Source of the DNA: a virus
Lineage: Duplodnaviria; Heunggongvirae; Uroviricota; Caudoviricetes
Virus record (IMG/VR): IMGVR_UViG_2548876865_000016
Coordinates: 1-31,155 of that record
Length of the DNA: 31,155 bases
Strand: one strand, 5' to 3'
The notes below the pieces were generated by a model that was given only the letters and a program-made list of their open reading frames with translations, was not told where the DNA came from and did no database searches. The translations under genes and the position numbers were made by a program. Shown one piece after another: positions 4,518 through 31,155 of this stretch. Position 1 is the stretch's first letter. Each line of letters opens with the position of its first letter.

Positions 4518-4944
4518 CGGCAGGTTGCTCCGGCCAGACAATATCTGTCGCTGAGTCGGTATCAATGCGCATCAGCGATACCCTGTATTCACGCCAGGCA
4601 GTAAAAAGCGCTTTTTCTGCGTCCGTCGCTTTACCCAGATCAACGGCATCCTGCAAAGGTGCCAGGATATTGCTGGCCGCAGCCATCAGGGCAGATTTTT
4701 GCGTCTCAGCCCTTACGATTGATTCTTCTTCAGAAAGCGGCAGGGGGTCAGAAAGGACCGGCTGACCATATTCATTTGGGATGATGATACGCCCTGAACT
4801 CTTATCAATCAGATACTGATACCAGCGCTCAGAAATCAACAAGGCGTCAGCAGGCCAGCCCAGTTCCGATTTTTCATAATCTGGCTTCAACGAAAGGAAG
4901 AAAAATCCATTCATGGAAGCACTGTAATAATATTGCTCATCCAT
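4507..4944 (-). CDS. Tail fibre assembly protein (Tfa / gpG-like chaperone)
   Basis: 145 aa; C-terminal ...LQDAVDLGKATDAEKALFTAWREYRVSLMRIDTDSATDIVWPEQP is the conserved Tfa motif; immediately downstream of the tail fibre gene. Confidence 0.75.
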   Translation of the reverse strand: MDEQYYYSASMNGFFFLSLKPDYEKSELGWPADALLISERWYQYLIDKSSGRIIIPNEYGQPVLSDPLPLSEEESIVRAETQKSALMAAASNILAPLQDAVDLGKATDAEKALFTAWREYRVSLMRIDTDSATDIVWPEQPADVA

Positions 4945-4947
4945 TTT

Positions 4948-6870
4948 TTAATATCCCGTTGCCAGCCAGAACAAAGGAAAGCCCTGGTTTGCGTTAAGCC
5001 TTGCCGTCGTATTGGAATATTGCGACACCGAACATTCGAGCGTCCCGGCCACATTCGAGGTAAAAGGCGTGACCTGAATATTCCGGCACGCATTCGGGAA
5101 TGCGATCGGGAACGTAATATTTTGATAACCGGACGTCTGGTTCGTGTAACCCCACTGACGGATCCTTCCTGTTGTTCCGTCGCGCTCCCAGCCGTTTTGC
5201 CCCAGGCTGGCCGTATTTTTCAGGTTATAGCGTGCGTCGCTCTCGGCTTTTGTATACGACCCAATCGACCCCGCCGAAATGGTGATGTTTGCTGTACCGT
5301 TAAATGCCACGCCGTTGATGGTGCGGGCGGTTTGCAATTGTGACGCTGAAACCGCATTACCATTTGACGCAAGAGCGCCAATCTCTGCCGGGGTGGGCTT
5401 GTTCGCCACATCATAGGCTTTTGTCCATGCAGACCAGGTGCCACCATAAAGCGTTCGGGCATAACTGCGGGAATTGTTGTACACGCGATAAATTTGCGTG
5501 ATTCCGGCATGCTTAAGGACTTCAAGAGAACCCGCGATCGCCTCCGGGTAATTCGTCCCGGTTTGCGCCTGCGCGTTCGCGGGCTGGTAATAAAGCCCTG
5601 GCGTGGTGTAGTTGTTCAGATTTGCTGCATTACCAATCCCTTCGGCCAACCGAAAAATATCAGACGGGAAAAGATCGATATTACTCGATAGCGCTCGACC
5701 GTTAACCGTTCGTGTTGAGGGCACGCGACTATTAGCATTATCGTTAGCCGCCTTAACTGCTTTCGGCGTCGCGGCGACGGCTTCCGACTCGCTGTCGGTG
5801 GCGCTGCTCAGTTGAATAATCCCTTTCTGCGCTGTCGTAGCGTCCTGCGCGGTGTATTTACCTTTCGCCAGGTCATAGGTTGCCTTAACCGCTTTCGGCG
5901 TTGCCGCTACTTCTTCAGAATCGCTATCCGTGGCGCTGCTTAATTGCGTGAATCCCTTTGCGGTTGTGGTGGCGTCCGGGTGGTTGCATGATTGTTCGTG
6001 TTTTTTCAGCGCATCACTGGCCTGTTGCTCGTTCAGCGTACCTTTTGGACGAAGATCGGTAATGACGCCGTTTGCGTCGATACTCGCAAGGGCAAACACG
6101 AAATGTTGCTCACCATTCTGCACGTAATCTTTAAGGTCGGCGGCAACCGTGATTTTGCTTTGTACCGCCCAAATGCTCGTAAGCGTTCCCATCCACGCCA
6201 CATCCAGCCAGACCTTAACCGGCTTTGTTGACACGGTAATATTCTGGTTTGCGGCCAACACTGAACGCAGACCGGCAAGGTATCCAGTACCTTTAGTGAC
6301 AAAATACTGGGTGCCTGTTTTCGCGACCAGATAACCCGCATCAAAGAACGACGCCGCACCATACAGATCGATATTTTCGCGGCGCTGGCGTTCATCCATT
6401 GCCGCCAGACGGGCAGTAAAATCAATCTGCCATGTCTCTGCCGGGGTGGTAATTTCCGTTGCTTCCCTGGCTCCGCTGTATTCCATCAGCATGGAACGGA
6501 CCAGAACGTTTCCCTGCTGGCCGTTCGCATTTTTGATTTTACGCTGGGTCGGGGCATGAATAATCATCGCCAGTGTACCGGTGGCTTTATTTGCCAGACC
6601 GATCCAGTTGAAATCAAAATCACCCACATCTGCCCCCATCGTGACGGAATAAACGACAGAGTTTTCATTCACAACACCGGATTTACTCACCACCTGACGA
6701 TAAACAATTTTATCCGCTGCGGGTGCTGTCTCGGTATTATCAATCGGCTTATCAGCATCCAGCCCCGGAATATACGCGAAAATAAATTCATCCAGCGCGA
6801 CGGGCTGATTATTAATAGCCTGCCTGGCTTTCCACTCTGTAAATGCTTTTGTAATAACGGCCTGTGACAT
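4948..6870 (-). CDS. Tail fibre protein (gpH-like) with internal tandem fibre repeat and divergent C-terminal receptor-binding region
   Basis: 640 aa; position between gpI-like and Tfa genes; two tandem ~44-aa repeats (…AKGFTQLSSATDSDSEEVAATPKAVKA… / …QKGIIQLSSATDSESEAVAATPKAVKA…). Confidence 0.8.
   Translation of the reverse strand: MSQAVITKAFTEWKARQAINNQPVALDEFIFAYIPGLDADKPIDNTETAPAADKIVYRQVVSKSGVVNENSVVYSVTMGADVGDFDFNWIGLANKATGTLAMIIHAPTQRKIKNANGQQGNVLVRSMLMEYSGAREATEITTPAETWQIDFTARLAAMDERQRRENIDLYGAASFFDAGYLVAKTGTQYFVTKGTGYLAGLRSVLAANQNITVSTKPVKVWLDVAWMGTLTSIWAVQSKITVAADLKDYVQNGEQHFVFALASIDANGVITDLRPKGTLNEQQASDALKKHEQSCNHPDATTTAKGFTQLSSATDSDSEEVAATPKAVKATYDLAKGKYTAQDATTAQKGIIQLSSATDSESEAVAATPKAVKAANDNANSRVPSTRTVNGRALSSNIDLFPSDIFRLAEGIGNAANLNNYTTPGLYYQPANAQAQTGTNYPEAIAGSLEVLKHAGITQIYRVYNNSRSYARTLYGGTWSAWTKAYDVANKPTPAEIGALASNGNAVSASQLQTARTINGVAFNGTANITISAGSIGSYTKAESDARYNLKNTASLGQNGWERDGTTGRIRQWGYTNQTSGYQNITFPIAFPNACRNIQVTPFTSNVAGTLECSVSQYSNTTARLNANQGFPLFWLATGY
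5750..6013 (-). repeat. Tandem duplication (2 x ~132 bp) inside the tail fibre gene, encoding the phage tail-fibre repeat
   Basis: Near-identical nucleotide blocks starting ~5750 and ~5882 (gccttaac(t/c)gctttcggcg...ggcgctgct...); in-frame 44-codon period. Coordinates approximate. Confidence 0.6.
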
Positions 6871-22184: not shown

Positions 22185-22190
22185 AAACAA

Positions 22191-22237
22191 AAACCCGCAT
22201 CAGCTAAATTTTAGTTCTTAGCCAAAAGCGGGTTTTC
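22191..22237. terminator. Putative bidirectional intrinsic terminator between the convergent ogr-like and MazF-like genes
   Basis: Two-tier hairpin cccgc-atca-gctaa-[loop]-ttagc-caaaa-gcggg, flanked by an A-run on the 5' side and tttt on the 3' side. Confidence 0.45.
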
Positions 22238-22252
22238 AATCATGAGATATTT

Positions 22253-22672
22253 TTACGCAGCCTTGTTAACTTTTTGATGGGCTAACTTCAATGCTGGGAT
22301 GTAGGCAGGATGTAAAGCGCCCATAACTGGTGACGTTGGTGCTTCGCCACTTTTCATGGGCGCAAGATTGAACCAGTCACTGTTATAGGGGAGTTTTATG
22401 AGCGTACTCATATCAAATTTAGTGTCGTGCGCAAGTCCAGAGATAGCAAACCCAGCATCAACAGTTCTGATAACAAACTCAGTACCGTAAATTCTGTCAG
22501 TTTTCTGACTTGTTCCGTAGACAACCATTACTGCATTATCTTCTTCTGCTACCTTCACAACCAGTGAAGGGCGAGGTTTTGGGCCAGGTTCCCCTGGAAC
22601 CTGAGGAAAGTAACACCAAACGATATCGCCTGGCTCAGGGAGGGGGGTATAGTTTTTTGTATTGGTTGCCAT
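22253..22672 (-). CDS. PemK/MazF-fold protein (putative toxin / endoribonuclease)
   Basis: 139 aa; N-terminal PEPGDIVWCYFPQVPGEPGPKPRPSLVV resembles the MazF/Kid signature (GD-I/L-W-x-F...RP-x-VV); strong SD (AAGGAG) upstream; AT-richer than backbone. Confidence 0.55.
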   Translation of the reverse strand: MATNTKNYTPLPEPGDIVWCYFPQVPGEPGPKPRPSLVVKVAEEDNAVMVVYGTSQKTDRIYGTEFVIRTVDAGFAISGLAHDTKFDMSTLIKLPYNSDWFNLAPMKSGEAPTSPVMGALHPAYIPALKLAHQKVNKAA

Positions 22673-22681
22673 TTGTTCTCC

Positions 22682-22966
22682 TTACAAGAGACTTTTAGTA
22701 AATCGCTCCTCCGGTATATCGCTCGCGGTAGAAAGCTCACGAATAGTTTGGATTTGAGCTGTTGTCAGCGGCCCGTCATCTTTTTCGTAATGTGGCAGAA
22801 AAGCATCAGCCAGTTTACGTAATGCCAAATGGGCCAGTTCGGTTTTTGTCATCCCTGTCAGCGTCATCAGCGCATCCAGCGTATAGCCGCTGATAGCGTT
22901 CGGCGTATCCTTCTCTCTTAATCGAAGAACGAAATCGCCGGTTTTTTTAACGACGTGTACTGTCAT
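22682..22966 (-). CDS. Unknown protein upstream of the MazF-like gene (candidate antitoxin/partner)
   Basis: 94 aa; 9-nt gap to downstream gene; GGAG SD; no resemblance to MazE/PemI seen by eye. Confidence 0.4.
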   Translation of the reverse strand: MTVHVVKKTGDFVLRLREKDTPNAISGYTLDALMTLTGMTKTELAHLALRKLADAFLPHYEKDDGPLTTAQIQTIRELSTASDIPEERFTKSLL

Positions 22967-23106
22967 TTTTGATACTCCAGTTAGTTACTTGTGTAATAGA
23001 CCTCTCTTATTCTTAAAGTTGTCTTCGGAACACCGAATGAGCTGGGTTACGGTTGAACATTATTCACTCCTAGGTTAGGGATGCCTGATAGTAGGCACAT
23101 AAGAAA

Positions 23107-23156
23107 GATATCAGATTGATATCACAAAAGCAAGGCAAAGATATCATATTGATATC
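23107..23156. promoter_or_regulatory. Twin 17-bp palindromes (GATATCA-N3-TGATATC), candidate operator pair
   Basis: gatatcagattgatatc at 23107-23123 and gatatcatattgatatc at 23140-23156, 33 bp apart, in the intergenic region between the stop of gene A and the start of the 94-aa gene. Confidence 0.5.
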
Positions 23157-23243
23157 TTCATGACTGAGCGGGCTCTTTGCCGCCCGCACCCGCAGAATCA
23201 CGCTAACCGACGCAACCAGTTGCGACGGCCAGCGCGATTTCAT

Positions 23244-25859
23244 TCATTCTTTTGGGTGGCGACCTTCCACATCCGCCAGCATTTTTTGATACTCCCCGAT
23301 CGGATCAAACCGCAGACGCGTGGCATCAATGCCGTGGTTATCCCGCAGGCGTTCCCATAATTTATTTACCGTCTGTGACTCATCGGGTAATTGACGTGTT
23401 ATCAACTGACCGCCAGCGCTGGCCTGATAAATTTTGCCGTCTATCTCCAGACGGCTCCCCATTAACAACGAAACGGCCTGAATCTCTGAAATCTCAACTG
23501 AATACAACGCCGCATCAGCCAACAGGCTGGCAACCGCAGGGGTAAGCGATGCCCGTCTGGCTTTTTCAGCCGTCGATCTGACCTCGGTTTTTTCGACAGC
23601 AGAACGCCAGGCGACATCTAATTCGCTTCCTGGCTCATAAGGTGATCCGCTTTGCTGCCTTTTGAATGGTGTTTCACGTAGTCGCCGCATCAATTTGCGC
23701 CGCGTTGTCTGGTCCATGTTTTCAAAATCGACGATTTCCTCTTCTGATTCTTCTGTCATACCCTCCACATCAGGCAAAAAATCGGTGATTTTTTCGTCTT
23801 CCGTAGAGTTATTGACAGAACTCCAAGCGTCGCCGGTTGGCGACGGCAAAAGGTCAACCCCCAAACCAGGGCCGTTTTTGGCCCCGGTGGCGGCTTTGGA
23901 TTTGGCGCGGATTTTCCACTTAACCAGACGGGTGCAAATACGGGAGGCATCACCCAGACGCGGCGACCAGACCCCGAATACCTTTTCGGGGATCTCACAA
24001 TAGGCGTTCATTTCATCAGCTGGCTGATAGGCCAGACGGACGACATAGTTTTCTCGCGGGATCAAAACACCGCCCTGGCGGATGATGTAGGTAGCAAAGC
24101 ACCCGACATCGGCAGCGGCGCAAACCGCATCCATTGCAGGATCCACAAGCAGCGGCGCACCGCGTTTGAAGGTATTGTCAATTTTCTGGCGGGTCGTGAT
24201 CTGATTGCTCAGTTTGCGCAGCTCGCGGTAAACCGATATGGGCGGCTGTCCGATAGGCTGAAACTGGCGGATACGGTGAAGCGACGCCCAGGCCATTGCA
24301 TATTTGGCGGTTTCATTCAGCGGTTTGCCGCTTTCGTCGTCCAGTTCACCGGCCAGCGCGTGGCCGTCGATATTCTTCGAAATGTATTTAGCGATGTATG
24401 CCGTTGCTGACCCTTTCCGTGGGTCCATTTTTTTTGACTTGAAACGAGCACCGGTATTACGGCCCAGCTCGTCGCGGTCTTCCGCAATGAAGTAGGCGCG
24501 AAGGATCGCAATCGTGGCTTTGACTTGCTCTTGTGGCATAAATAGCAACGCGTGCCAGTGTGGTGTCCCATCGTGATGCGGCTCGGCGACGCGGAAGCCA
24601 TAAGGGCGCAAATCTTCGCGTTTCAGTTTGGCGGTTGCCCGGTTCCATACTCGGCATAAATAGCGCTGCGCCTGGGCGACGGTGGAATGATTCCATTTGG
24701 CGTTATGGTGGCCGGACGCAATATTACTGTGATATTTCGACGGGCAAGTGATGGTCAGGAAGATGCCAACATCGCCGCGACTTTGGGCGACAAGCTCAAC
24801 CCCAGCCATTCGGGCCATAAGCTCATGGCGACGAATAGCCGGGTTAGACGTGGATTTATTAATCATTTCCTCAAGCGACGAAACGTTGCCGTCTTCGTCT
24901 ACCAGTTCATGACTTTTGAAAAAATCCCGGTGTTTACGGCGCTGTTCCTGCCACTCGATCAGGCTGGAAACGCTAACGTAGGCGTGCGCTTTTTTATTTA
25001 CCGCGCCAACAGCACGCAGCTGGTTCTCGCGCCAGTCACAACGCAAGCGCCAGATTTTACGCCCCCACCAGTCAGGCGAAGCCATACGCAAAATGGCCGT
25101 GCATATGCGCTCGCGTTCCCACGGCGCATACCATGCAGGCGGTACAATGCGAAGCGCCAGCATTTCGCGGCCCTGGTGGCAATAAAGCCAGTCCAATTCT
25201 TCGACGTTCATGTCTGAAACATTCCGTCCCAGGGCTTCGCATTCCGTCCCCAGCATTTCAGCCATGCGGCTGGCGATCTCATTAGCGGCGCTCAGTGCTT
25301 CCCGCTTTGTGAAATCAGCCAGACGTTGCCAGCGCCCGAACCAGTACGCAGCCAGTTCGCCGGTGATATCAGGCGAAACACCTTGCCTTGTGCGTACAAC
25401 ATCAAGACGCAGCAATGATTTTTTCACGGTCCCCATAAGAAAATCATTGGTGTGTCTGGTTTCACGGTTGACCCGTAACCACTCAATTTTTTTACGCCAG
25501 ACTTCACGAATGAAGAACGGTTCTGATAATAAACGCGCTTCGACACCTTCGGGCGTATTGACCCAGGCTGCCGTCGTAGCTTTAGCGGCTTCCATTTCCT
25601 GCCGGATTATATTTTGATGGGCGGCCAGTAGCAGGCCGTACGGTTCGTACCTGTCCAGCGCCTGGATAAGCGCGTTACGGTCCCGAACCTCGTCGGGGTT
25701 GTAACCGGCGCGTTTGAAGATGTGATCGATGTGTTTTTTTACGGCTGGATGATGTACCACCGCCCCTGCAAGCGGGGCGATTTTTTTCGGTTCGTAGGTG
25801 TACAGGCCAATAGCTGGGCGCGGCGCGTTCCAGGGCCATGCAAAAGCGGTGTCAGACAT
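23244..25859 (-). CDS. A: Rolling-circle replication initiator (P2 gpA-like HUH endonuclease); start taken at ATG 25859 (ORF track GTG at 25877)
   Basis: ~871 aa; HUH-type motif (TPHWHALLF) and paired Tyr (ATAYIAKYISK); ATG at 25857-25859 lies 2 nt after the upstream small-ORF stop. Confidence 0.8.
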   Translation of the reverse strand: MSDTAFAWPWNAPRPAIGLYTYEPKKIAPLAGAVVHHPAVKKHIDHIFKRAGYNPDEVRDRNALIQALDRYEPYGLLLAAHQNIIRQEMEAAKATTAAWVNTPEGVEARLLSEPFFIREVWRKKIEWLRVNRETRHTNDFLMGTVKKSLLRLDVVRTRQGVSPDITGELAAYWFGRWQRLADFTKREALSAANEIASRMAEMLGTECEALGRNVSDMNVEELDWLYCHQGREMLALRIVPPAWYAPWERERICTAILRMASPDWWGRKIWRLRCDWRENQLRAVGAVNKKAHAYVSVSSLIEWQEQRRKHRDFFKSHELVDEDGNVSSLEEMINKSTSNPAIRRHELMARMAGVELVAQSRGDVGIFLTITCPSKYHSNIASGHHNAKWNHSTVAQAQRYLCRVWNRATAKLKREDLRPYGFRVAEPHHDGTPHWHALLFMPQEQVKATIAILRAYFIAEDRDELGRNTGARFKSKKMDPRKGSATAYIAKYISKNIDGHALAGELDDESGKPLNETAKYAMAWASLHRIRQFQPIGQPPISVYRELRKLSNQITTRQKIDNTFKRGAPLLVDPAMDAVCAAADVGCFATYIIRQGGVLIPRENYVVRLAYQPADEMNAYCEIPEKVFGVWSPRLGDASRICTRLVKWKIRAKSKAATGAKNGPGLGVDLLPSPTGDAWSSVNNSTEDEKITDFLPDVEGMTEESEEEIVDFENMDQTTRRKLMRRLRETPFKRQQSGSPYEPGSELDVAWRSAVEKTEVRSTAEKARRASLTPAVASLLADAALYSVEISEIQAVSLLMGSRLEIDGKIYQASAGGQLITRQLPDESQTVNKLWERLRDNHGIDATRLRFDPIGEYQKMLADVEGRHPKE

Positions 25860-26073
25860 TGGATGCCCCGCTATCACCCTCCCGCAGGGAATGCTTTTCG
25901 ATTAGCGGGTCGAGTAACACATTGAAAGAAATCAACAGCGTGTTTGCGGCTTCACTTCCGGCGAGAACACCCGCCAACGTTGCGTGTGCAAGGGCCAGTG
26001 TTTTGGCTTCGTTAAGCGCAGCCAGTGCGCCGCGCTGGTATTCCGAAAGACCGTTATTAATTTTGCTAGCCAT
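25852..26073 (-). CDS. Small hypothetical protein (73 aa), translationally coupled to dam
   Basis: ATG overlaps the dam stop (ATGA); its stop abuts the proposed start of gene A. Confidence 0.35.
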   Translation of the reverse strand: MASKINNGLSEYQRGALAALNEAKTLALAHATLAGVLAGSEAANTLLISFNVLLDPLIEKHSLREGDSGASNV

Positions 26074-27038
26074 CAGAAGAGCACCTCGTCAGCCGTTCCA
26101 CCCCACACGGAATAACCAGCACAAGGGCCGCAGTCAGGGCAGCACCCACCACCGGCACGGCGACAAGTCGCGCAGACTTTGAGGACGCCGATCACTTCAC
26201 TGGCGGCCCCTCTGGTAATGGCGTTCGCGCTAACAGAACGGTTAACGCTGATTTCCTGGAAGTTGAAACAGCGATAAATCTCGCGGGTGACTGGGGTGTC
26301 GCTATTGGACAGGATCACCGGCGAACCAGTAAGGCGGTTAATATCCAGCAGGGCGGCAGCTAACTGGCGATGTTCTTTAATGCCAAACGGGGCTGTGTGA
26401 TATTGGGTGAAATTAGCTGTTTCGCTTGTTGGCAGGTATGGCGGATCGCAGTAGATAACCGCGTCACTACCAATCATGATTTTTAACGTGCTCTGGAAAT
26501 CGCAGCACACGAAAATGGCTTTCGTGTCGTTAGCTTTTTCAGAGAATAAACGGATCTGTTCTTCCGGGAAGTAAGGCGGGGTTTTGTGACGCCCAAAGGG
26601 AACGTTATATCCACCCTGTTGGTTGTAGCGTACTACGCCGTTATATCCGTGACGGTTCAGGTAAAGAAATTGTGCTGCACGAAGAATCTTGCCCGCGTCC
26701 GGCCCATCTTCAAACACACTGCGCAATGACAGTAGGTCACGTGCGCGGGCGTTGAAATCATCGCGGATCCACTTATAGCCGTCTTTATCGCCGTACACTT
26801 TAAACAGTGGGCGAGCAGCGTCGATCACCGCATCAGGCCAGCGGGTTATCTGGCGATACAGGTTAATTAAATCTGGGTTGATATCACCCAGGATATAACG
26901 GCGATATTCAGTATTGAGGAAAACAGAAGCACCGCCGACAAACGGTTCCACCAGGCAATCGGCTTTCGGCAGAATCGGCAGCAAATCAGGCATAACGCGG
27001 CCTTTACCACCGGGCCATTTAACGAGAGATCGAATCAT
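26073..27038 (-). CDS. dam: DNA N6-adenine methyltransferase (Dam-like), with a Cys-rich C-terminal extension
   Basis: 321 aa; SAM-binding motif EPFVGGASVF and catalytic DPPY; C-terminal ~40 aa CATCRRAGGGCCPDCGPC. Confidence 0.85.
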   Translation of the reverse strand: MIRSLVKWPGGKGRVMPDLLPILPKADCLVEPFVGGASVFLNTEYRRYILGDINPDLINLYRQITRWPDAVIDAARPLFKVYGDKDGYKWIRDDFNARARDLLSLRSVFEDGPDAGKILRAAQFLYLNRHGYNGVVRYNQQGGYNVPFGRHKTPPYFPEEQIRLFSEKANDTKAIFVCCDFQSTLKIMIGSDAVIYCDPPYLPTSETANFTQYHTAPFGIKEHRQLAAALLDINRLTGSPVILSNSDTPVTREIYRCFNFQEISVNRSVSANAITRGAASEVIGVLKVCATCRRAGGGCCPDCGPCAGYSVWGGTADEVLF

Positions 27039-28357: not shown

Positions 28358-28705
28358 TCACTGTGGCGTTATCGTTTTTCTTGTGCGAGGTGGTACATCT
28401 CGCACGGTTTCTTCATCAACAATCAACTCATAAACTCTGATGCTGTTATCACCTTTTGATACGTCATCAAATACCTGAAAAAGAAAACTCATGAATTGCT
28501 CATAAGTGACGCTGGGTTCAACATACCCACCAGTAACCTCAATTAATGGTGTTAGTCCTGAATTATCTGCTAACGAAACGCAGTCCAACTTATCCAAACG
28601 GAAAAAGTAATTACCGCAAGGTGTTCTTTTATCCTTAATCCGTATAAACACATTTGATAACGCTGTATGACTATCTGAGAGTTTAAAGATTTTTGCCGTG
28701 TCCAT
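28358..28705 (-). CDS. Hypothetical protein (115 aa from ATG 28705; ORF-track TTG at 28714)
   Basis: First gene downstream of cox in the early operon; AT-rich; convergent with and 4 nt from the 27874..28353 gene. Confidence 0.4.
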   Translation of the reverse strand: MDTAKIFKLSDSHTALSNVFIRIKDKRTPCGNYFFRLDKLDCVSLADNSGLTPLIEVTGGYVEPSVTYEQFMSFLFQVFDDVSKGDNSIRVYELIVDEETVRDVPPRTRKTITPQ

Positions 28706-28727: not shown

Positions 28728-29003
28728 TTATGATGGATTGCCCAGACCCAACCACATTAACCACCCTTCCCTAATTTCCTTCGGGCGGCTCTCATACGCC
28801 ATTTTCATGCCGTTGTTCCAGGCTGGAAGATAGACCCAGTACTCACCTGCCCGCCCGGAAGTTGATTGCGGATCGGTCATTTCAACTACAGGTAGCTTTC
28901 CTTTTTCAATCATCCCCTTCACCGCTGCCGGTGTTTTACCAATGAGTTTTGCGAACTCCTGATATGGGACGGCATCTGTGCTTAACGCGATCTGTTTAAC
29001 CAT
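28728..29003 (-). CDS. cox: Cox-like excisionase / early-operon regulator
   Basis: 91 aa (same as P2 Cox); divergent from C across a short switch region; ...GRAGEYWVYLPAWNNG...GWLMWLGLG... as in P2 Cox. Confidence 0.8.
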   Translation of the reverse strand: MVKQIALSTDAVPYQEFAKLIGKTPAAVKGMIEKGKLPVVEMTDPQSTSGRAGEYWVYLPAWNNGMKMAYESRPKEIREGWLMWLGLGNPS

Positions 29004-29119: not shown

Positions 29120-29419
29120 ATGTCAAACGCCTTAAACGAGAAAATTGTACTCATCAGAAAGTCTGAGTATCTCAGCAGACAGCAACTTGCTGATTTAACA
29201 GGCATTCCCTATGGCACTTTAAGTTATTACGAGAGTGGTCGTTCTACACCGCCCACGGACGTAATGATGAGGATTTTGCAAATGCCCCAGTTCAGCAAAT
29301 ACACGTTGTGGTTTATGACCGATCAGGTTGCTCCCGAAGCCGGTCAGATAGCACCGGCCCTCGCACACTTTGGGCAAGATGTAACAACATCGCAGCACTC
29401 AGACCAAAAGATTGGTTAA
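29120..29419 (+). CDS. C: Immunity repressor C (P2 C-like)
   Basis: 99 aa (same as P2 C); N-terminal ...EKIVLIRKSEYLSRQQLADLTGIPYGTLSYYESGRSTPP... HTH; directly upstream of int. Confidence 0.85.
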   Translation: MSNALNEKIVLIRKSEYLSRQQLADLTGIPYGTLSYYESGRSTPPTDVMMRILQMPQFSKYTLWFMTDQVAPEAGQIAPALAHFGQDVTTSQHSDQKIG

Positions 29420-29564: not shown

Positions 29565-30572
29565 ATGACAATTAAGAAACTCGATGATGGTCGTTATGAA
29601 GTGGATATCAGACCTGCAGGGCGCAACGGAAAGCGCATCCGCAGGAAATTTGACAAGAAAAGTGAGGCTGTAGCTTTTGAGAAACACACTCAATACAACC
29701 ATCACGATAAAGAATGGCTAGCTAAACCGACAGATAAGCGGCATCTGTCTGAATTAACAAAAGTCTGGTGGGATCTGAAAGGCAAGCATGAAGAACACGG
29801 AAAATCCAATTTGGGTAAGATTGAAATCTTTACCCGGATCACTGATGACCCTTGCGCGTTCCAGATAACCAAAGCGCTTATTAGCCAGTACAGCATGACT
29901 CGCAGAGGGCAAGGCATAAAACCGGCCAGTATTAACCGCGACCTTACCTGCCTGAGTGGTATGTTTACTGCGCTAATTGATGCGGAACTGTTTTTTGGCG
30001 AACACCCTTTCAGAGGAATGAAAAAGCTCAAGGAGCAGAAACCAGAAACAGGCTATCTGACGCAGGAAGAAATAACATTGTTACTTGCCAATCTTGACGG
30101 GGACAACAAGAAAATCGCGATCCTCTGTTTAAGTACCGGCGCTCGATGGGGTGAAGCCGCGAAACTGAAAGCTGAGAACGTAATACAGAATCGGGTGACG
30201 TTCGTTAAAACAAAGACGAACAAACCGCGCACAGTCCCTATCTCTGAGGAAGTTGCTGTAATGATTGCGGGTAAAGGTTATCTGTTCCCTGATGCCTCAT
30301 ATCCGAAGTTCAGGCGAACAATGAAAGATGTAAAACCAGATCTACCGGACGGGCAAGCAACTCACGCATTGCGTCACAGTTTTGCTACCCACTTTATGAT
30401 TAACGGCGGGAGTATCATCACCCTGCAGAGAATACTGGGACATTCACGCATAGAGCAGACAATGGTCTATGCGCACTTTGCCCCGGAGTATCTTCAGGAT
30501 GCTGTTTCACTCAATCCGCTACGTGGTGGCGTTGACTCCATGAGTGTCCACACTGTGTCCACAGTAGGGTAG
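29565..30572 (+). CDS. int: Tyrosine integrase (P2 Int-like)
   Basis: 335 aa (P2 Int 337 aa); catalytic-box residues ...HALRHSFATHF... and ...LGHSRIEQTMVYAH...; transcribed toward the att core. Confidence 0.95.
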   Translation: MTIKKLDDGRYEVDIRPAGRNGKRIRRKFDKKSEAVAFEKHTQYNHHDKEWLAKPTDKRHLSELTKVWWDLKGKHEEHGKSNLGKIEIFTRITDDPCAFQITKALISQYSMTRRGQGIKPASINRDLTCLSGMFTALIDAELFFGEHPFRGMKKLKEQKPETGYLTQEEITLLLANLDGDNKKIAILCLSTGARWGEAAKLKAENVIQNRVTFVKTKTNKPRTVPISEEVAVMIAGKGYLFPDASYPKFRRTMKDVKPDLPDGQATHALRHSFATHFMINGGSIITLQRILGHSRIEQTMVYAHFAPEYLQDAVSLNPLRGGVDSMSVHTVSTVG

Positions 30573-30653
30573 TTTATTATGGCTTTCAGTGGTCTTGCGT
30601 GCCGCGCAAACCCGCATTGCACCGCTGAAAGCCCATGTTACCTACCCTGAAAA

Positions 30654-30678
30654 ACGCCCTTACACGGGCTTATTTTTT
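30654..30678. other. Prophage attachment-site core (P2 att-core-like), integrase-proximal junction
   Basis: cgcccttacacgggcttatttttt is the reverse complement of AAAAAATAAGCCCGTGTAAGGG, matching the P2 att core as I recall it; ~80 bp after the int stop; low-GC DNA begins to its right. Confidence 0.5.
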
Positions 30679-30837
30679 TATGCATAAGCCCTATCTCTGG
30701 TAACCGTCTTCCATTGACCACATCGATAGAATCTCCCTTCATAGCACGATGCCTTTCACGTAACGGCATCGTGCTCGCACAGGTTCCGGCTAAGCACAAC
30801 CAGAACGCGCATGTTTGACGCTTACCAAAAAATATTC

Positions 30838-31155
30838 TCACTCTCCACATTTGAATGTCAGACGAGCGACGCCATGTAATCCTGCACCTTCTGTCTTCAG
30901 GTCAACTATCTGCATTTTTTTGCCCTGAGTAACACAGAAATGGGCTGCATCATTTTTTACTATATTTTCTGCACCAGATATTCTGCCCCTGGCTAAAGAA
31001 GCTTCGGCTTCGGTGTAGTATTGATTATCGAGTTTACGCTGAATATTACTTTTATATGCAAGACCAAATTTACCGATACTTGTCTCATCATTATGCACAG
31101 CACAACCAGACATAATAAAAATACTAATTAATGATATAGCAGCTATCTTTTTCAT
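30838..31155 (-). CDS. Host-flank small lipoprotein (105 aa); possibly YegR-like by size and synteny with a P2 attachment locus (unverified)
   Basis: Signal peptide plus lipobox (FIMSGC); low GC; start codon is the last three bases of the window; outside the att core. Confidence 0.6.
   Translation of the reverse strand: MKKIAAISLISIFIMSGCAVHNDETSIGKFGLAYKSNIQRKLDNQYYTEAEASLARGRISGAENIVKNDAAHFCVTQGKKMQIVDLKTEGAGLHGVARLTFKCGE

Follow-up and report, generated by a model that had tools for sequence, protein, structure and literature searches.

Positions 30538-30679 of the 31,155-nucleotide stretch of DNA that we analyzed (hereafter, the window) very probably (about 93%) constitute the integrase-proximal recombinant attachment site of a P2-like (Peduoviridae) prophage integrated in the cyaR (ryeE) site. 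In P2 nomenclature, this junction is attL (B-O-P'), here on the opposite strand. From left to right, it is composed of two arm-type Int sites, a stretch collinear with the P2 Cox-binding region, the core, and E. coli DNA that continues into yegR, and our comparisons with other genomes place the insertion site between yegQ/trhP-cyaR and yegR of E. coli. The cyaR/ryeE P2 site is presumably locI of E. coli C (Barreiro & Haggard-Ljungquist 1992).

The use of cyaR (ryeE) as a P2-type insertion site is already known, and our finding is real but ordinary. In the genome paper on E. coli W (PMC3032704), the "cyaR RNA" appears as a P2-type insertion site that is occupied in W, K-12 (ogr-D'), and B, and according to Bobay et al. 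(PMC3603311), ryeE in E. coli was "previously known to be targeted by phages". The variant features of the present case, a 22- rather than 27-nt identity with attB and a mosaic prophage, are minor. The analysis bears out a textbook situation, in which a temperate phage targets a small-RNA gene at its terminator and the gene stays intact, and it provides exact coordinates for annotating the prophage, whose right boundary is at 30678/30679.

A P2-type integrase gene is followed by a core that duplicates part of the cyaR terminator

The integrase gene (29565-30572, + strand) encodes a P2-type tyrosine integrase of 335 aa that is 87% identical to P2 Int over its full length, contains Int_N and Phage_integrase Pfam domains, and is transcribed toward the attachment site. 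Upstream of int and in the same orientation is a gene for a C-type immunity repressor (29120-29419, + strand), a 99-aa open reading frame in the position of P2 C for which identical loci gave an HTH_3 Pfam hit. The excisionase/directionality factor gene cox (28728-29003, - strand) encodes a protein of 91 aa that is 80% identical to P2 Cox, with a Pfam Phage_Cox assignment in identical loci.

The sole match in the window to the 27-mer core of P2, AATCTCCCTTACACGGGCTTATTTTTT, was found at 30652-30678 on the + strand, with 25/27 identical positions and 0 such matches expected by chance. This segment starts 80 nt from the int stop codon and corresponds in the alignment to the annotated attP core of the P2 GenBank entry. 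Both mismatches are within the 5 nt on the integrase side, where the window has AAACG and P2 has AATCT. The last 22 nt of the core, CCCTTACACGGGCTTATTTTTT, occur only once in the window (30657-30678, + strand; 0 expected by chance) and are an exact duplicate of the 3' half-stem and U-tract of the cyaR terminator. The original prediction of an integrase-proximal attachment junction with a P2-type core was therefore borne out by the adjacent P2-like Int, by the core match that is unique in the window, and by the identification of the empty site (see below).

That prediction had also put a P2 attachment locus of E. coli K-12 at the 3' end of CyaR, beside a P2 remnant and yegR, and the K-12 annotation agrees. 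In K-12, cyaR occupies 2167114-2167200, and the cryptic prophage PR-X, which contains ogrK and yegZ and has yegR next to it, has its annotated start within the cyaR 3' end, at 2167183. At its right end, PR-X has the sequence CTACACGGGCTTATTTTTTTATGCATAAGCCC..., which is also that of the window from 30659 on. The K-12 annotation and the relatives of the window thus confirmed the proposed chromosomal site, and the prophage has a common target with P2 and the PR-X remnant (ogrK-yegZ), the cyaR 3' end next to yegR.

We located the transition from phage to host DNA by several comparisons. BLAST homology to P2 stopped at 30678, and homology to the K-12 chromosome started at 30661. A synthetic unoccupied site was constructed by joining the yegQ-cyaR side of strain FWSEC0003, up to the end of the core, to window positions 30679-31000. 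This sequence was found with 100% identity over all 617 nt, as a single piece, in many E. coli genomes (e.g., APEC O78), which fixes the position of the junction. Across 10 assemblies with an identical Int, the phage side up to ...GAAAAACGCCCTTACACGGGCTTATTTTTT was almost invariant, and strain-type single-nucleotide polymorphisms, a T6/T7 length difference, and a 12-nt deletion occurred only to the right of the core. This combination of an invariant phage side and strain polymorphism beyond the core indicates that phage DNA switches to host DNA within 30657-30679. Furthermore, the flank types are swapped between the two junctions of the prophage. The int junction has the phage-type AAACG to the left of the 22-mer and TATGCATAAGCCC to the right, whereas the cyaR junction has the host-type AATCT to the left and the phage-type GCCTGTAATC... 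to the right, which implies strand exchange inside the 22-nt identity. From P2 homology and this comparison of flanks, we infer that strand exchange must have occurred within 30657-30678.

The window and some strains have T7 as the run of T residues at the right edge of the core (30673-30679 in the window, with equivalents in loci L010-L019); other strains have T6. The run at the cyaR junction is T6 and precedes the phage G, so that the CyaR U-tract of lysogens differs by one U from that of T7-type empty sites. In such lysogens, cyaR has a phage-derived downstream context, with T6 and then GCCTG as opposed to T7 and then ATGC.

Two other predicted features of the core region fared less well. 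A short hairpin formed by GGGCTTAT (30666-30673) and ATAAGCCC (30684-30691) is real, with 8/8 positions paired, but it extends beyond 30680, where the predicted feature ended. It spans the core and the host flank and occurs in unoccupied sites too. A sharp drop in GC content to the right of the junction was not observed, as GC content remains at 0.49-0.51 until about position 30800, and it is only within yegR that it declines, to 0.43-0.38.

A second core copy and an intact CyaR are present at the opposite prophage end

The window holds a single core copy, and the distal junction lies outside it; the duplication was seen in identical and near-identical genomes. By an exact-protein look-up with the AbiH-family protein encoded at the left end of the window, we located assembly GCA_964048225.1, in which all 3966 nt compared are the same as in the window. 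A second copy of the 22-nt core is present in this assembly 166-187 nt to the left of window position 1, where it forms the 3' end (half-stem and U-tract) of a full-length CyaR (RF00112, 100.7 bits versus a gathering score of 47). In FWSEC0003 (E. coli O45:H2), a prophage 92-97% identical to that of the window fills the yegQ-yegR interval, and a second core with a full-length CyaR (RF00112, 100.7 bits) is likewise found at its distal end. In GCA_029620285.1, both junctions are on one contig, and the AbiH-to-int distance is identical to that in the window. The second core copy is about 31.3 kb to the left of the core in the window. The lack of a second copy at the other prophage end had been named as the result that would speak against an attachment junction, and the copy was found in all three of these genomes.

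These findings fit a mechanism extrapolated from P2 biology in which Int (with IHF) would recombine the phage attP core with the cyaR terminator. CyaR would be left intact at the distal junction because the core duplicates the terminator segment, and the prophage would contribute to that junction only what lies to the right of the crossover and downstream. Judged by sequence, CyaR is unchanged by the insertion.

The AbiH-family abortive-infection gene (1-966, + strand), with whose ATG the window starts, is the first gene of the prophage, and the integrase-distal att arm with its hairpin terminator is its immediate neighbor. This cargo/defense position is close to the cyaR junction.

Putative Int arm sites at the int 3' end and an inverted repeat in a putative Cox region precede the core

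For comparison with P2, we took the P2 sequence by accession. The reverse complement of the P2 attP region aligned to the window gap-free, starting at the int 3' end and continuing through the whole core. In this alignment, the P2 attP core (P2 24356-24382) is collinear with window positions 30678-30652, the P2 Cox-binding region (P2 24399-24472) corresponds without gaps to 30635-30562, and the P2 Int P' arm site (P2 24470-24496) maps collinearly to 30564-30538. The last int codons of the window contain two direct repeats of GTGTCCACA (30544-30552 and 30555-30563), which we read as P' arm-type Int sites. The complement of this repeat, TGTGGACAC, fits the P2-type Int arm consensus, tgTGGaCa (PMC3448106). 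By homology to P2, Int would be expected to bind these putative arm repeats and the core, and Cox would be expected to bind within 30562-30635. The details of accessory factors could differ, considering that the prophage departs from P2 outside the int-C-cox module.

An imperfect inverted repeat that had been predicted in this region was confirmed, with arms at 30566-30593 and 30621-30648 and a 13-bp center formed by GGCTTTCAGTGGT (30581-30593) and ACCGCTGAAAGCC (30621-30633). By its alignment with P2, this repeat appears to be the stretch that is bound by Cox in P2. Across 64 related loci, the distance from the arm sites to the core was constant at 112 nt, and the stem of the inverted repeat was kept in 15/15 distinct variants drawn from these loci. 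The arm repeats in the int 3' end, the inverted repeat in the putative Cox region, and the core at 112-nt spacing together form a layout like that of P2. Excision would involve assembly of Int, IHF, and Cox on both this P' arm and the P arm of the distal junction, followed by recombination between the two cores. The products would be an attP consisting of window ...AAACG, the core, and GCCTGTAATC... and an attB consisting of cyaR, T7, and ATGCATAAGCCC.

The host flank contains yegR and a possible relic of an older insertion

The E. coli chromosomal flank (B arm) extends from the core to yegR (30679-30837) and is defined by the 100% identity of the synthetic empty site. The host gene yegR (30838-31155, - strand) encodes a 105-aa lipoprotein with a Pfam YegR assignment and is annotated in all relatives. 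When the last 756 nt of the window were compared with complete E. coli genomes, the yegR part matched 5418/5426, and the int part was matched as well in 809/5426 (~15%), with annotation as "phage integrase" and "yegR"; these genomes thus have a P2-type integrase gene at precisely this position beside yegR.

Within this flank, positions 30692-30726 (TATCTCTGGTAACCGTCTTC-CATTGACCACATCGA) align at 29/36 positions with the ogr-side P arm of P2, which carries Int arm sites, and the alignment score was reached by 0/2000 shuffles. The orientation of this segment relative to the core is as in P2, its distance from the core is about right, and it retains one arm-type Int site, TGTGGTCA, on the complement. 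The segment is not present in the Citrobacter cyaR flank. It is also found in unoccupied cyaR-yegR sites of E. coli, and the species-wide attB may for this reason be a scar of an older insertion. On these sequence comparisons, we consider it possible, but rather doubtful, that the unoccupied cyaR-yegR spacer of E. coli was left by an older P2-like integration. If so, the attB found across the species would contain a remnant arm site with a potential effect on how Int assembles or in which direction recombination proceeds at this hotspot.

Other elements were observed in the same interval. An 11-bp hairpin formed by AGCACGATGCC and GGCATCGTGCT (30743-30775) is located 62 nt downstream of the yegR stop codon in the position that the ogr terminator has in P2. 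As minus-strand RNA, it has a folding energy of -24.6 kcal/mol (z -3.8) with no U-run after it, and its loop varies between strains while the stem is kept. The sequence AATCTCCCTT at 30730-30739, 52 nt to the right of the real core, repeats the initial 10 nt of the 27-nt core of P2, which are also the cyaR terminator loop. It is polymorphic between strains, being AATCCTCCTT in K-12 and AATCACCCTT and AATCCCCCTT elsewhere, and could be due to chance or represent a second, degenerate core remnant.

We also considered yegR as former phage cargo and rejected this idea, as its only phage hits were host DNA in a prophage-derived partial record and a 2.3-kb fragment. The partial genome of Escherichia phage vB_EcoM-720R8 (ON470606.1) contains yegR, yegS, and the gat repressor gene, which indicates that this record includes host DNA beyond the same int-side junction. 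Caution is warranted when ON470606.1 is used to delimit phage genomes.

Alternative interpretations of the junction

The host flank bears on whether the true prophage boundary could be elsewhere, for example beyond yegR, with the core match being a secondary or fossil site. Although the P2 P-arm-like relic to the right of the core and the presence of yegR in one phage database record are what such a boundary might produce, cyaR is joined directly to window position 30679 onward with 100% identity in many genomes, and yegR occurs almost throughout E. coli with the prophage or with none. The phage record with yegR is itself partial and prophage-derived and also includes yegS and gatR. We regard a boundary elsewhere as extremely improbable. 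Only slightly more credence is due to the original prediction that the int junction doubles as an sRNA 3' end and that the prophage supplies a replacement CyaR terminator there. The final 22 nt of the CyaR/RyeE sRNA (RF00112) are shared at 30657-30678 in the cyaR sense, but the int junction has none of the other parts of this sRNA. All DNA to the left of the core on the + strand, which is the cyaR sense, is of phage origin (int coding sequence and P' arm). The 85 nt upstream of the U-tract belong to the P' arm and have no similarity to the cyaR body, no seed region, and no CRP-dependent promoter of their own; a promoter scan detected no site in 30400-30680. No Rfam match to CyaR was obtained anywhere in the window at the gathering threshold or in 30400-30900 even at E<=10, and the sole hit was a chance-level match to STnc320. 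The int junction lacks the 5' half of the stem of the CyaR terminator. The true terminator folds into a stem of 11 bp, but folding of the int junction gave a stem of only 4 bp (GCCC/GGGC) ahead of the U-run, and a consensus terminator scan found nothing at the core. Considering also that a complete CyaR is present at the other junction, a replacement sRNA end at the int junction is very unlikely. The predicted link to an sRNA is right as to the locus, which is the cyaR/P2 site, but it is at the integrase-distal junction that the 3' end of the sRNA is rebuilt. The core copy at the int junction is instead a displaced, orphan CyaR 3' fragment, a half-terminator without an sRNA body that would act at most as a weak stop for C-int read-through and is not to be annotated as an sRNA. 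A pseudo-terminator pairing between AAGCCCATGT (30629-30638) and ACACGGGCTT (30662-30671), with -10.1 kcal/mol and z -1.8, was rejected as a designed replacement stem because the much stronger inverted repeat competes with it, because it is not kept in P2, and because the same arm also joins a Citrobacter core variant (see below) with which the pairing is worse.

A different possibility is that the stem-loop that directly follows the int stop codon (30581-30633) and the A5-GCCC...GGGC-U7 element of the core have, in addition to their role as recombination DNA, a role in RNA as a 3' stabilizer or weak (bidirectional) terminator of the C-int transcript. The inverted repeat does form a strong RNA fold (-35.7 kcal/mol, z -3.8, compared to -33.2 kcal/mol and z -2.9 for the P2 equivalent), and its stem is retained in every one of the distinct variants. 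Wherever the alignment of these variants departs from Watson-Crick pairing, the int-sense strand has G.U or U.G (the opposite strand would have A.C). GC, GU, and AU all occur at one pair, and a U7 run follows the core. However, a covariation test of the 15 variants found the stem to be conserved but the covariation to be indistinguishable from that of shuffles, 63/500 of which reached the score. In addition, 9/15 helix pairs are invariant, as expected of a protein-binding site, and this DNA corresponds to what is annotated in P2 as the Cox-binding region. The core hairpin, with just 4 bp and no support from the terminator scan, is broken in both the P2 and the Citrobacter-type core variants. 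We consider a role of this stem-loop at the RNA level unlikely.

Comparison with P2 and other phages that target RNA genes

The prophage differs from P2 outside the int-C-cox module. Even within it, the DNA of the int module is only ~74% identical to that of P2, and a megablast search with the junction did not retrieve P2 for this reason. Due to AAACG in the prophage core in place of AATCT in P2, the core has an identity of 22 nt, not 27 nt, with the E. coli attB. The gene order and content of the prophage also differ from those of P2: AbiH cargo flanks the distal arm, the ogr-like gene comes behind that for the portal, and the tail genes are HP1-like. The prophage is thus a mosaic of a P2-type int-C-cox module and other structural genes (HP1-like, DUF2586/DUF2590).

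Copying of an RNA-gene 3' end by the attP core is also found in 186 and HP1 (tRNA genes), Fels-2/SopE-phi (ssrA), and P2-like elements in rybB and ryeB/sdsR. In these phages, as here, the gene remains intact and an orphan 3' fragment is located on the integrase side. In contrast to the phages that target tRNA or tmRNA genes, the target here is the terminator of an Hfq-dependent sRNA, and the duplicated segment is short (22 nt).

Five IMG/VR loci combine the same integrase (99-100% aa identity) and P' arm with a variant core, CCCTTACGCAGGCTTATTTTTT. This variant is the CyaR 3' end in Citrobacter species, as found in two Citrobacter loci (105.5 bits). The first bases of the distal phage arm, GCCTG, are also those found after the Citrobacter terminator, so that the identity would be 27 nt in Citrobacter versus 22 nt in E. 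coli. These sequence matches hint that the phage lineage has moved between genera. The occurrence of this integrase lineage at cyaR in Citrobacter with a host-matched core is an example of how the att core tracks the terminator sequence of the host.

Relative to the window, the FWSEC0003 prophage contains an IS3-family insertion (positions 37582-38795 of that locus) that is absent from the window at 28395/28396 and has an ALIL pseudoknot (Rfam, 120.9 bits). Three segments of the window, ~4662-5891 (tail fiber), 22185-23168, and 25848-26171, are replaced or highly divergent between the two prophages.
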